DNA of 20,633 nucleotides, taken from IMG/VR virus record IMGVR_UViG_2529293039_000014; one strand, given 5' to 3'. How positions within the stretch are numbered: position 1 is the stretch's first letter; every line of letters begins with the position of its first letter. A program made the position numbers. The DNA is from a virus (lineage: Duplodnaviria > Heunggongvirae > Uroviricota > Caudoviricetes). Below are positions 15,001-20,633 of this stretch, one piece after another.

Positions 15001-18000
15001 GGCCTCTGGTCGTGGATTTCCACAACCAGAAAATAATGGTGATGCATGAAAAATAGAAACGCTTATAAAACCGCATTATTAATGGCTAATGCAGGATACT
15101 GGTCAGTTGCAATACTGTTTCTCAGAAAAGCATACGGGAAATAACAAATGGCATGTACAACCATTTATAAAGATCGTCGCCGCATGGTAACAGCGGCACT
15201 CCGGCGGATGCAACGTAAAACAGGTAGTAATCTGCTCGTCGTTGACCTCCCGGACGGAGAAATAACAACGATAGAAATAACTGAACAGTTCATGAACCAG
15301 TTGTTATTACGATTTGAGGGTCTTACCCGTGTTGAATATGGACGGACGGAAGGAGAAGCAACAATCCGTACCGCATACCAGAATGCCATCGGTATTAATC
15401 AACACACGGAATATCTCACTGAATCAGGGAAACTGATAGTGGACGGCCTTTTAAAAGAGGTTGTTGACTACGTAAAAGAGAAATATATCAGTGGAGGAAT
15501 TAACTGATGTCTGATTTATCCCCTCTTATACACGAAAAAGTACAGATCATTATGACGATTGAAAATGGTCAGGTAATAAATACCCGTAAAGTTCACAATA
15601 ACGAGATGATTGCCAGCATGGATACCTTCTTATGGATAGCAAAGAAAGCGGGATATCAGGTAATCGCTCCTGATCTGGAGGAAATCGGTGACATTAACAG
15701 CAATACGAATTCCTGAGTGGGTGCACCTGCAGGCGGTCCGTGTTCTCCGCCAGTTCAGAGCCAGACGAATTCATCCCTGTCGTATGCACGGCTCCGGAAA
15801 CCTGAGTCTGAGGGTTAATCGCCGCTGGCGGCTGCTGTCCCGAGACGGCGGCCAGAACTGGGAAGTAATGAGCCATGAACGATACAGCAAAGTTAAGGAC
15901 CGGAAATGAACAATAAACCTTCAAACCAAAAGGAGAGTATTGATGATTAATTCAACCATTACCCCTGAACCTACATTAACAGGCATCCGTTTTGGTAATC
16001 GAATTATTGGTTATTCAACTGCGGTTCGCCAGATCGACAACGGTAACTATGACAAACGAATTCCGGACGGGCTCGATCTGATAGCTTGCATTATGGAAGG
16101 GATTGAAAGCGGCTGGTTTATGCCGTGTATTGAAAAACAAATCATCCTATGGCGCTGGCTTGTTGTCGCCGTGTTCATTGCTGAGGAGCAGGAGAAGAAC
16201 GGGACTGTCGATGTTCAGAATGACAAGGGCGGCGTAGATACAGCCGTTGTATACACAGGAAAACCCGGTTCAATCAGCATTTATCCATGGTCTGAGCGCT
16301 TCGCGCTCGCTAACCATATCGAGGCGGGCGCAATTGAAAAATACGGGCCTGACGTTGGCCAGCAGATGGCGCTGCGTATGTATCAGGACATGGTTGTAAC
16401 TGACGAGAAATGCGGATTCAGGCTGTCAGCGATGGGCCGGGAGGGACTCAACATACTACATGACAGCTTCATTGAACTGATTCAGAAAGACGGTATGCCA
16501 GACATGCCGGTTATGCACTGAGGTGGACGAAAATGAACATAGTAACGATCAATAACAAACAGCTTCCGGCAGTCGAATATCGCGGTCAGCGTGTTGTGAC
16601 GCTGGCGATGATTGATGAAGTCCACCAGCGACCGGAAGGAACAGCGCGTGCAGCATTCAACCGAAACCGTGAGCATTTCATCAGCGGTGTGGATTATGCC
16701 GAATTAGGTGCGGACGTAATACGTACGGACCTCCCGGAAGGAACATTCTCTAAATTTGCACCATCAGGGATTGTACTTTTTGAATCAGGTTACCTGATGT
16801 TGACGAAGCCATTCAATGACGCCCTTGCCTGGCAGGTTCAGCGCGAACTGGTTAACAGCTACTTCCGCACTCGCACACCGCTAACGGAAATCGAGATGAT
16901 CGCTGCGATAGCCGCCGACGCTGTTCGTCAACAGAAGCGCCTGAATCATGTGGAAGAACAGCTCGAAACAGTCACAGAAGCGGTGGAAACCATCAAACGC
17001 GGAAATATGCGCGCCGGATATGTCGGTTATCGCCAGGTGGTCGCCAAAAGCGGAATGACTGATGCTAAGTGCCGCAATCTGGTCAATGCCTACAGCATCC
17101 CAACCGATACGCACGAATTTATGACACCAGATGGTCTTCTTTCGCGCCGGGCTATCGTGGAGCTGGAGCCATTCATGAAAGCATTTCATCAGATGATGTC
17201 AGAGGCAGAGCCACGTGGTACCCGCTGGTATCACCCGAAGATGGGGCTGTTTCAGGTGATTGGTTGGGAGGGTAAATAATGTCACTCATTACACAAAATT
17301 TCCGCCTCAATGCGCTGGCAAATCAGTATGCGGCGGCACTGCACAACCACATATCCGCCACCAGCGGTGGTCATTTCCTGATTAATGTCAATGGGCAATC
17401 CATACGAGTAAACATCATCGGTGGGGTTAAAGGCATCAGGGACTTAATCGATGGTTATGCTCTGAAGGCTATCAAAGAAAATTACCCCCAATGGGAAGCC
17501 GTTGGTATTCAACTGTTAAGCAAATGCGTTCGTGGAAACGAGCTGACGCAAAGCGGCAAAGAAATCTGGCAGAGCATGGTCAACGACATGAGCGATACCG
17601 TTATGGGGAACATGTAAATGAAAATCCAATACCAGGACTATGGCGCCGTAGCGAACATCGTGATCACCAGTTCCTGCCTGACATTGCAAAAGCATAACCG
17701 CGTTGTTGATGCGGTGCTGTTTAATGTACAGGGGATCTCTGAAAACCGCAGCGGCTTTTTCTGGGTTAAGTCATCGTTGTCAGGAAAAACACGCGACATC
17801 CTGCGCGCCTACAAAATCGTACAGCGGGAGGCAAAGTGATGAAGTCATTCCTCCTGTCCATACTGTTTAGTCTGCTGCTGGCGTCCGTCGTTTTCGGTAC
17901 GCTGATTGAATATAAATTTTTAATGAATTACTGAGGTGCGGGGTGGGCAAGATCAAAAACCCAGTTGTACTTATCCATAAGCGAGAAAATAGTGACTCCT

Positions 18001-20633
18001 ACGCCGTTACAATCACCTGCGGTAGCCAGAACTATCACGACGCCGTTCTGATGGCGTCGATGGAACTGGATATGAGTGACGATGATGTCGATACCTAGAG
18101 TAAAACAGGCTATTACATGGCTGAAGAAATCGAGCGACTGAAACAAGCACTTTCCGCTGCGGAAAATAATCTGATTGATTCCGAATGCCTCGTAGCTGAA
18201 TTAAGCAAAGCAAAGGATCACGCATATGGGCTGGTCGACACATACGACTGGCAACGTCAGCGTCTCCACGCAGCCGCTGAGAAAGTCCTCAAATGGTGCA
18301 GACAAGAAGCTGAACACCGTACCGGCGATCCAGAGAAAGCAGAAAACTATGCGTGCGTTAAAGAACTACGCGACGCATTAACTTTTTGCAAAAGTTCTGA
18401 AAGCAGCAAGAAGAAAGGCCTGACTATCACCCTGCCCGATATCACATCAAAGGCATTCTGGAGCGGTACCGGAAAAAACGCAAAATTCCATCCGGCAACC
18501 TATAAACGCTGGGTGAAAGAAGCTATTAAACGGGATTGTGTTATTGCCGGGATCGGCGTGGAGGTGAAATGATGAATTGGCCTGAAGCATTCACCGCAGT
18601 AGGAGTTGCAATAGCGGTGGCATTTATTCTGTATTCGCTTTTCCGCTGGGGATAAAGGAATGTTCGCTCTGATTCAACGTGGTCAGATATACACCGATAG
18701 TGCTGGCTACCCGATAAAAATTATTCGCTGCATAAACAACACTGTGTTGTACAGAAGAATGGATGGGCGAACACAGTCGGTAAAAATAAACGATTTTAAT
18801 GAACTGTTTGAACGGATCGATCACCAGGAATACCGACAAATTCTGGCAGAAACAGAGCAGGAAGCTCATCTGAAAAAATTACGAGCCATGAAAAGGAAGT
18901 AAAGAATGAATAAAGCATTTGAACGATGGGTCCACCAGCGTTACGGCAATCGCTATGACCTGACACGAGATGTTGACGGTTTCTACTGTCGTGAAATTGT
19001 GAAACGAATGTTTGAAGTGTGGTGCCACTGCCGTGGGCTGAGTGTTGTGTGAGGTTGGCATGCAGACAATCATCTATCAGATAACCCCCAGCAAATGGTG
19101 TACGGAGAGAGTCCTCATTGCATCAACAGGGCTAAAGCCTGGCACCATTGAGCGGGCAAGAAGAAAGTCATGGATGCAGGGAAAAGAATACCGCCATTAC
19201 GCTGTAGAAGGTGATCCGGGGCACTACAGTGAATGCCTGTACAACATCGAAGAAATTATGCGATGGATCGAAAACCAGAAACAACCAGGTGCCAAAAATG
19301 CAAGTTCCGGTTAACCTGTTAATGCTCCTGGACGTCTGGGAGGTTTAATGAGTAACGCATCATACCCGACAGGCGTTGAAAACCATGGAGGATCACTCCG
19401 TATATGGTTTCACTATAATGGCAAACGTGTCAGAGAAAACCTCGGTGTTCCTGACACAGCCAAAAACCGGAAGATCGCTGGTGAACTTCGCACTTCCGTT
19501 TGTTTTGCAATCAGAATGGGGAGTTTCGACTACGCCGCGCAGTTCCCTAATTCCCCTAACCTGAAACACTTTGGTCTGGGAAAAAGAGAGATAACCGTTA
19601 AGGCACTTTCGGAAAAATGGTTGGACCTTAAGAAAATTGAGATTTGTGCGAATGCACTTAACCGTTACCAGTCAGTAATTAAAAACATGTTACCAATGTT
19701 AGGTGAAAAAAACTGGTTTCATCCATAACAAAAGAGGATTTACTTTTCGTAAGGAGAGATTTGTTGACCGGTTACCAAAAGCTTTCTAATGGAAAGACTT
19801 CTTCCATAAAAGGGCGCTCAGTGGTCACGGTAAACTACTATATGACAACCATAGCTGGAATGTTTCAATTTGCAACAGATAATGGTTATACCTCAGGAAA
19901 CCCATTTAACGGTCTGGCTCCCTTAAAAAAGTCCAAGGTAAAACCAGATCCTCTCACCCGTGACGAATTTATTCGTTTTATTGAGGCTTGCCGTCATCAA
20001 CAAACAAAAAACCTGTGGATTCTCGCTGTATACACGGGTATTCGTCACGGGGAGTTGGTATCGCTGGCATGGGAAGATATAGACCTTAAAGCAAGGACTA
20101 TAACCATCCGTAGAAATTATACAAAACTTGGCGAATTCACTCCACCAAAAACCGATGCAGGCACCGGAAGGACAATTCATCTGGTTCAACCAGCTATTGA
20201 TGCTCTTAAAAGCCAGGCGGAAATGACCATGCTTGGAAAGCAACATTCTGTAGAGGTGAAGCAGAGGGAATATGGGAGAACTGCTGTGCATAAATGCACT
20301 TTTGTTTTTAGTCCTCAGGTAACAAAACAGCAGCAGTTGTCCGGACCTCACTACAAGGTTGACTCCATCAGGGAGTCATGGACAAGTATCTTAAAACGCG
20401 CAGGTCTGAGACACAGAAAATCGTACCAATCCAGGCATACTTATGCATGCTGGTCACTTGCCGCAGGAGCTAATCCTAGTTTTATCGCAAGCCAGATGGG
20501 CCACACAAACGCACAAATGGTATTCAATGTTTACGGAGCATGGATGAAAGACAACAATCACGAACAGATAGAACTCCTTAACAAAAGACTATCTGAAAGT
20601 GTCCCATGTATGCCCCATAAGAAAGTTGGGTAA

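Follow-up and report, generated by a model that had tools for sequence, protein, structure and literature searches.

Do two very short open reading frames (ORFs) in the early region of a phage encode membrane peptides and, if they do, how would these be made and what would they do? The question is raised by IMG/VR record IMGVR_UViG_2529293039_000014, a virus of the Caudoviricetes, of which a stretch of 20,633 nucleotides (the window) was analyzed. An earlier note had pointed to ORFs of 31 aa (17839-17934) and 28 aa (18569-18655) as unannotated single-helix membrane peptides with strong Shine-Dalgarno (SD) sites, possibly Kil-like division inhibitors, superinfection-exclusion factors or type I toxin-like peptides. 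Both ORFs were found at these coordinates, and are here called pep1 and pep2. Judged by comparison of related sequences, the two are almost certainly genuine protein-coding genes kept by purifying selection. The reading that we favor, with moderate confidence, is that they are coupled micro-cistrons of an early-left operon, and that their products would be single-pass inner-membrane microproteins that modulate host membrane function through a partner or by self-association.

The pep1 gene (17839..17934, plus strand), from the ATG at 17839 to the TGA at 17934, encodes the 31-aa single-helix microprotein MKSFLLSILFSLLLASVVFGTLIEYKFLMNY. Its ATG has one base (A) in common with the TGA (17837-17839) of a 73-aa gene upstream (17618..17839, plus strand; PHROG match to phrog_1001, function unknown). 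The SD of pep1, GGGAGG (17826..17831, plus strand), lies 7 nt before the ATG, within the final codons of the 73-aa gene, and was retained in most family members at the loci of relatives. The overlap of start and stop, as ATGA or TGATG, was nearly always present across the pep1 family. In 80 IMG/VR relatives, the end of the 73-aa gene almost always had one of these two forms, overlapping whichever gene came next.

The pep1 start region was also folded. The centroid structure contained a predicted hairpin (17824..17857, plus strand), in which the SD was paired with codons 4-6 (CCUCCU), and the folding predictions paired the SD in 26 of the 44 unique start-region variants. The z-score of the region was an ordinary -0.57, and the evidence for the hairpin is weak. 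In a subgroup with a GAAGGA SD, codons 4-6 read UUCCUUU, which hinted at compensating changes. Such a hairpin, if the folding model is right, may keep the SD closed until it is opened by a ribosome completing the 73-aa gene, and may so reinforce the coupling.

At the second locus, the ORF from the ATG at 18569 to the TAA at 18655 encodes MMNWPEAFTAVGVAIAVAFILYSLFRWG, 28 aa. The SD of pep2, GGAGGTGA (18560..18567, plus strand), agrees with the classical SD consensus over 8 consecutive bases. It stands 7 nt before an ATG at 18572 and only 4 nt before the ATG at 18569. All other alleles of pep2 have a single ATG aligned with 18572, and in some allele-A loci a GTG replaces the first ATG. Because of the SD spacing and the single ATG or GTG in these alleles, the conserved product is taken to be 27 aa long (MNWPEAF...RWG). 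By this comparison, the 28-aa reading, begun at 18569, probably has one codon too many. The pep2 gene is therefore given as 18572..18655 on the plus strand, encoding the 27-aa single-helix microprotein MNWPEAFTAVGVAIAVAFILYSLFRWG, to which the alternative start at 18569 would add one Met. The ATG at 18572 overlaps the upstream stop TGA (18570-18572). Across the family, 55 of 58 unique contexts had an upstream ORF, at least 60 codons long, whose stop overlapped the conserved pep2 start.

Both ORFs stood out from chance. All 190 ATG ORFs of 20-45 aa on both strands were screened for an SD-like core 3-10 nt upstream and for a 17-residue window with a mean hydropathy of at least 1.8. Only pep1 and pep2 combined the two features (three entries, as both pep2 ATGs count). 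In 30 block-shuffled controls, such ORFs numbered 0.23 per window on average and never more than 2. This control and the codon-position patterns described next led us to reject the reading of the two as chance ORFs.

Loci of pep1 were gathered in two independent ways, through relatives of the 73-aa gene and through pep1 itself. The family comprised 38 proteins, 30-34 aa long, in 47 distinct nucleotide versions. Of the 27 unique versions in the first locus set, one was truncated at 24 aa (locus L101) and 26 were intact. Pairwise Nei-Gojobori comparison of the full set gave a ratio of nonsynonymous to synonymous divergence (dN/dS) of 0.23 in frame, versus 0.53 and 2.99 out of frame. In the smaller first set the value was 0.12, similar to the 0.14 of the adjacent bona fide gene.

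The constraint on pep1 was uneven. The hydrophobic part (codons 2-19) had a dN/dS of 0.38. In codons 20-28, G-[A/T/S]-L-I-E-Y-K-F-[L/M], the proportions of synonymous (pS) and nonsynonymous (pN) differences were 0.416 and 0.012, respectively, with a dN/dS of 0.02. G20 and L22 to F27 were invariant in 38 of 38 proteins, and residue 21 was always small (A, T or S). A HMMER search of 1.84 billion representative proteins returned only five pep1 relatives, all small and stand-alone (30-45 aa), and a fragment of a larger family was rejected on this basis. In a tblastn search of pep1 against phages, phi467 was the sole match, with the hydrophobic half of the query hidden by low-complexity masking.

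Four routes led to loci of pep2: relatives of DUF4222, the peptide itself, a set of named phages, and a scan over genomes that represent species. They yielded at least 21 distinct nucleotide sequences and 12 proteins, and the length was exactly 27 codons every time. The consensus was M-x-W-P-[E/D]-A-[F/I]-x-x-[V/L]-G-x-x-x-A-x-x-x-x-x-[Y/F]-S-x-[C/F]-R-W-x, in which M1, W3, P4, A6, G11, A15, S22, R25 and W26 were invariant. The dN/dS was 0.27 in frame versus 0.91 and 1.98 out of frame. In allele C, 12 of the 13 variable sites were third codon positions, and the stop codon varied as well (TAA or TGA). Conservation of the reading frames in related prophages had been named beforehand as the test that could undo the proposal, and it came out in its favor: frames, lengths and amino acids were under purifying selection across dozens of diverged prophages. 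A frameshifted C-terminal tail of DUF551 proteins was also considered for pep2. It was rejected, since the gene upstream is not constant and the few database entries of greater length are incomplete or over-extended ORF calls.

Conservation might also come from something other than the peptides, if the act of translation itself mattered in cis, if the region were kept as RNA or as a recombination junction, or if the ORFs were there by chance. Each peptide ORF ends right against the ribosome-binding site of the gene that follows, as would suit a role in coupling. The pep2 block starts at a mosaic junction: a DNA block common to hundreds of E. coli prophages has its left edge exactly at the pep2 SD, at 18560. 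On the other hand, selection acted on the amino acids, as judged from the in-frame versus out-of-frame dN/dS. The downstream genes vary, and in two loci (L250 and L251) pep2 stands directly before an intrinsic terminator. No conserved RNA structure was found either. The consensus fold of the pep2 region had -4.2 kcal/mol, one covarying pair and a z-score of +1.02, beside the -0.57 of pep1, and a search of the whole window against Rfam gave zero family matches. An RNA element was rejected for both ORFs from the lack of an Rfam match and of a conserved fold and from the ordinary z-scores. We consider a cis-acting or chance origin extremely improbable.

The hydrophobicity of the products was examined next to their conservation. 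The best 19-residue Kyte-Doolittle mean was 2.52 in pep1 (residues 5-23, flanked by K2 and E24) and 2.28 in pep2 (residues 6-24, flanked by acidic E5 and R25). Summed on the Hessa scale, pep1 gave -2.4 and pep2 -0.9 kcal/mol. One stretch in each peptide had the length and the hydrophobicity of a membrane span. AlphaFold2 modeled pep1 as one helix over residues 2-30 (pLDDT 96.6). The hydrophobic span of pep1 covers residues 4-23, and its tail is rich in aromatics (Y25, F27 and Y31). The claim that each peptide is largely one hydrophobic helix was thus borne out by the two scales and, for pep1, by the structure model. It is very probable that both products form a membrane helix.

Orientation was estimated from the charges, K2 versus E24/K26 in pep1 and E5 versus R25 in pep2. 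The positive-inside rule suggests N-in/C-out for pep1, and the charge distribution suggests N-out/C-in for pep2. In a helical wheel of pep2, P4, G11, A15, S22 and W26 fell within 280-340 degrees, an arc of 60 degrees. This suggests, from the residue pattern, the kind of face expected in helix packing.

The asymmetric conservation of pep1, with a dN/dS of 0.38 in the hydrophobic part versus 0.02 in the C-terminal motif, is also what might be seen if pep1 were a pre-peptide. In that case an export signal would be cut off after G20, and the undecapeptide A-L-I-E-Y-K-F-L-x-x-x would be set free in the periplasm, where it would serve as an effector or a signal. The site V18-F19-G20|A21 satisfies the -3/-1 rule through V18-x-G20, residue 21 is always A, T or S, and the Citrobacter homologue bears the Phobius label SIGNAL_PEPTIDE in PMC11188072. 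However, a polar c-region is absent. The hydrophobic run reaches I23, making a canonical 20-residue span between K2 and E24, the AlphaFold2 helix is unbroken, and the aromatics Y25, F27 and Y/F31 fit an interfacial anchor. pep1 contains no Cys, hence it is not a lipoprotein. We regard this processing as highly improbable. If true, a pep1-derived peptide of 10-13 residues, ALIEYKFL(xx..), in the periplasm or the medium would be a Gram-negative lambdoid counterpart of arbitrium-like peptide communication.

The anchored microproteins that we favor would be made according to where their genes lie. The right two-thirds of the window was approximately 98-99% identical to Stx2f-type prophages and to phage phi467, and the host prophage, one of E. 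coli, would be lambdoid and related to the Stx2f phage phi467. On the plus strand, a cI-like repressor gene (13240-14007, with HTH and Peptidase_S24 domains) is followed by two sigma-70 promoter-like sites (14070..14141, plus strand; 10/12 and 9/12 matches in a consensus scan), presumed to be an early-left (pL-like) promoter. Then come the gene of an HTH protein, several genes of unknown function, an ORF6N anti-repressor-like gene, a 112-aa gene, the 73-aa gene and pep1. After pep1 the order is a 209-aa-type gene, pep2, DUF4222, a 48-aa gene, excisionase and integrase. The small genes between repressor and integrase form a closely packed, unbroken run, which is the lambdoid early-left operon, the counterpart of the lambda exo-xis region.

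With the simple consensus scan, the sites at 14070-14141 were the sole ones on the plus strand in 14000-20633, and none was found at 14150-20633. The peptides would therefore be made in step with the operon, either after loss of the repressor on induction or early in infection. Expression is likely to fall mainly in the lytic phase. Within the operon, translation of each peptide would be coupled to that of the gene before it, as the ATG overlaps the upstream stop and the strong SD lies 7 nt before it, in the last codons of that gene. The chain would continue past pep2: an AGGA ribosome-binding site (18656-18659, plus strand) abuts the pep2 stop and is followed by the next cistron, the DUF4222 gene (18660-18902, plus strand; PF13973, E 3.6e-16).

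This arrangement bears on superinfection exclusion, one of the roles suggested at the outset. Here the peptides would bind an inner-membrane component of DNA entry, such as a phosphotransferase system (PTS) permease, and block incoming phage DNA. T4 Imm and HK97 gp15 are small phage inner-membrane proteins able to exclude, and pep2 is very widespread in polylysogenic Shiga toxin-producing E. coli, with up to 7 copies per genome. Neither an own promoter nor moron-like promoter and terminator flanks were found by the simple consensus scan, however. The peptides would therefore not be made in a repressed lysogen, the state in which exclusion normally operates. Neither peptide resembled a PADLOC defense model. 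Exclusion in the lysogen was thus disfavored, the sole same-strand promoter-like sites being those beside the repressor gene, and we consider it quite unlikely. A lysogenic-conversion 'moron' was disfavored, as no own promoter-like site was found on the plus strand at 14150-20633, although a weak promoter is possible with a scan of this kind.

The same region was compared with type I toxin loci. As membrane-depolarizing peptides, pep1 and pep2 would damage the membrane, in post-segregational killing or in the timing of lysis. They share with Hok/Gef, TisB, Ibs, Ldr, ShoB and DinQ a similar size and a single, very short hydrophobic helix, and pep2 homologues sometimes adjoin hok genes, namely hokW/sokW in 933W and hokD in APEC O1. 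On the other hand, no antisense RNA, no minus-strand promoter-like site near either peptide gene (consensus scan) and no Rfam match were found. Unlike the toxins, the peptides have strong SDs and are coupled to operon genes, and they lack a dedicated promoter and a dedicated mRNA silenced by its leader. The adjacent hok modules are separate and are absent from the window. This proposed class was therefore also disfavored, and is in our estimate very unlikely.

The peptides also lie outside the lysis cassette. Holin and lysozyme genes were placed at about 5.3-6.1 kb on the minus strand, from their position and from the annotation of the close relative F719, which is 12 kb from the peptides, on the opposite strand to them and outside their early operon. 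A holin or other membrane protein of the lysis cassette was rejected as the identity of either peptide, as both lie outside the cassette and the late operon.

The early-left position is the one in which lambda carries kil, and the size class of the peptides fits that of small division inhibitors. Products like Kil or SidA would insert in the membrane, block a component of the divisome and delay host division during early lytic growth. Caulobacter SidA, a small single-helix peptide, reportedly inhibits division. Lambda Kil, Rac KilR, DicB and T7 Gp0.4 are likewise small early phage proteins, and Kil belongs to the same leftward early operon. However, neither pep1 nor pep2 matched any family in PHROGs, Pfam, NCBIfam or PADLOC, a difference from these proteins. 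To our knowledge, none of the four is a transmembrane peptide. The small phage proteins that block FtsZ have been reviewed (PMC11323111). Division inhibition is, on balance, unlikely.

What is favored instead is a modulation of host membrane function during early lytic development. In pep1, K2 would be cytoplasmic, residues 4-23 would span the membrane, and the GxLIEYKFL motif would lie at the outer interface. In pep2, the acidic WP[E/D]A end would be outside, residues 6-24 would span, and R25-W26 would be inside. The peptides would act by sequence-specific packing of the helix and the juxtamembrane segment onto a larger membrane protein, or by self-association. Binding to a larger membrane protein is a common mode of action of small membrane proteins with one helix (PMC12648545). 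MgrB, AcrZ, MgtS, MgtR, PmrR, SidA, CydX and KdpF, of 25-50 aa with a single helix, are of this type (PMC12648545). The small-residue face of pep2 (G11, A15 and S22) and the nearly invariant juxtamembrane motif of pep1 resemble such regulatory proteins. pep1 and pep2 differ from them in being phage-borne and operon-coupled, and in having no sequence similarity to them. By this analogy, action through a membrane partner may be proposed, tentatively and at somewhat less than even chances. The partner would probably be a host protein, because the phage neighbors are not constant.

The inconstancy of the neighbors was seen on both sides of both genes. At least five unrelated genes preceded pep1 and at least six followed it across loci, and approximately half of the relatives of the 73-aa gene lacked pep1. 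Upstream of pep2 were DUF551, EaA, dATP/dGTP pyrophosphohydrolase or hypothetical proteins. Downstream were DUF4222, hokW/sokW (933W), hokD (APEC O1), an inverted toxin-antitoxin pair (ArgO145), Ea22 or a terminator. As the genes on either side differ from phage to phage, each peptide gene constitutes a small module of its own, mobile as a single gene. A gene starting MGK[I/V/L]TFVV[E/D]F.DG came after pep1 in two loci (L110 and L118) and after pep2 in three (L239, L252 and L255). Both peptide genes can therefore fill equivalent slots.

Some arrangements around pep2 were mapped more closely. In L250 and L251, one an E. coli and one a Shigella flexneri prophage, pep2 was the last cistron and was followed by a strong intrinsic terminator, AAAAACCCCGGA...TCCGGGGTTTTT, at about 1585-1620. 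The homologues directly upstream of hok genes were those of 933W (hokW/sokW; L247, 2001-2450) and APEC O1 (hokD; L334, 1502-1952). In the hokD-bearing Qin prophage, which alone among the K-12 prophages was covered by the search, no pep2 homologue was found.

Several points weigh against the reading as membrane microproteins of an early operon. The Citrobacter homologue of pep1 was classed as 'nonTM' by TMHMM and as a signal peptide by Phobius in Fesenko et al. 2024 (PMC11188072). A promoter scan by simple consensus could miss a weak internal promoter. No co-conserved neighbor that would point to a partner was found. Neither peptide appeared in the supplementary tables of ribosome profiling of Sakai, in which the cultures were not induced. 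Lastly, the prophage appears defective, with an IS66 element in its terminase gene and a nonsense codon upstream of pep2, and expression from this particular copy is uncertain for that reason.

The nonsense codon lies in the gene between the two peptides (17943..18572, plus strand). By sequence comparison, phi467 and other relatives have this gene as one 209-aa ORF, and it is here split into 17943-18098 and 18117-18572. The cause is an in-frame TAG (18096-18098) produced by G18097A, which changes Trp52 to a stop relative to phi467. The nonsense codon could lower the coupled translation of pep2 in this copy. The same split was present in assembly GCA_900448265.1, which is likely the source of the window and in which the integrase adjoins mlrA. 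The IS66-family element at the other end of the window consists of an HTH transposase ORF (1-648), TnpB_IS66 (648-995) and DDE_Tnp_IS66 (1015-2586). It abuts a fragment of the terminase large-subunit gene (2613-3500, minus strand), of which only the ATPase domain is left.

The two families differed in distribution. Database names place pep1 in E. coli, Citrobacter and Enterobacter. Only 18 of 5426 complete E. coli genomes have it, which makes it rare in that species, and its exact sequence was indexed in 377 blocks of a public assembly collection. The pep2 family was present in 1574 of the 5426 complete E. coli genomes (about 29%), with up to 7 copies in each, and in 138 places on plasmids. 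Phages with pep2 include 933W, VT2-Sakai, VT1-Sakai, BP-4795, Min27 and ArgO145. Among 185,579 species representatives, a scan with the N-terminal pattern, limited in sensitivity, found pep2 only in Escherichia and Shigella, besides two tiny contigs. These carried pep2 sequence resembling that of E. coli Stx phages and were assigned to Acinetobacter idrijaensis (L252, 369 nt) and Xanthomonas pisi (L256, 431 nt). The peptide of the Xanthomonas contig was identical to the 933W allele. Both contigs are most likely assembly contamination.

The annotation record was also uneven. Both peptides were omitted by the RefSeq pipeline (Prokaryotic Genome Annotation Pipeline, PGAP) in every E. coli chromosome and plasmid record checked, and pep2 was unannotated in the RefSeq phage records inspected. 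Outside RefSeq, pep1 is annotated as a coding sequence for a hypothetical protein in phi467 (CUW01254.1) and in several GenBank and UniRef records, and pep2 in a small number of GenBank entries (ETI78407.1 and ASL58468.1, among others). The earlier description of the two as unannotated is thus accurate for the RefSeq records checked, and not for these entries. Neither peptide gave a significant family match in the four profile libraries, and sub-threshold hits (glycine-zipper and B12D) were obtained for pep2 only. Neither sequence was found in the searchable full-text literature.

A pep1 homologue, MKPFLLSMLFGLLLVAVVFGALIEYKFLMNY, is listed as cluster Citrobacter_76875 in 'Entero67K', a collection of conserved intergenic small-ORF families of Enterobacteriaceae, as one of its ORFs under selection (Fesenko et al. 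2024, PMC11188072). The portion of its supplement that was covered contained no pep2. The members of Entero67K resemble pep1 and pep2 in being short, mostly hydrophobic ORFs that are under purifying selection and are missed by standard annotation. They differ in that they are given as a catalogue without function, phage context or motif analysis (PMC11188072). Conserved hydrophobic small ORFs of phages and enterobacteria are a numerous, known class, of which pep1 is an already catalogued member.

Other features of the window concern the surrounding prophage. The 48-aa gene between DUF4222 and excisionase (18906-19052), also small, conserved and of unknown function, matched phrog_3871 (E 4e-35). 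It came directly after relatives of the 73-aa gene in four loci (L154, L162, L164 and L165), and so shuffles within the region. The prophages that matched the window best carry stx2f. In the window, the minus strand from the antiterminator-like ORF to the holin-like ORF (5000-8400 region) had no ORF of the size of the Stx A subunit. ARAGORN found zero tRNA genes in the window, whereas the close relative in E. coli F719 carries four of them, located between the antiterminator gene and the holin gene.

The exo-xis genes of lambda and Stx phages (orf60a, orf61, orf63, orf73, ea22 and ea8.5) occupy the same compartment as pep1 and pep2, between the early-left functions and xis-int. They are also small and conserved, with presumed delayed-early expression. 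The genes of this region are conserved and mostly of unknown function (PMC4195576). In Stx phages, the neighbors of pep2 include Ea22-like, DUF551 and DksA/TraR-like genes. The exo-xis genes differ in having no sequence similarity to pep1 or pep2. No transmembrane peptide is known to us among the exo-xis products described so far.

The existence of these two genes is useful rather than surprising, since predictions of conserved hydrophobic small ORFs in phages and enterobacteria already run to thousands. What stands out is the wide occurrence of the unannotated pep2 among E. coli and Stx phages, together with the clear-cut motifs of both peptides. These motifs, GxLIEYKFL in pep1 and WP[E/D]A, G11/A15/S22 and RW in pep2, offer targets for mutagenesis and partner screens. 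Annotating pep1 and pep2 would close a systematic gap in medically important phages. Genes of the exo-xis type of region influence the efficiency of lysogenization and induction in Stx phages, and a component that acts on the membrane would add a new kind of player to this region.

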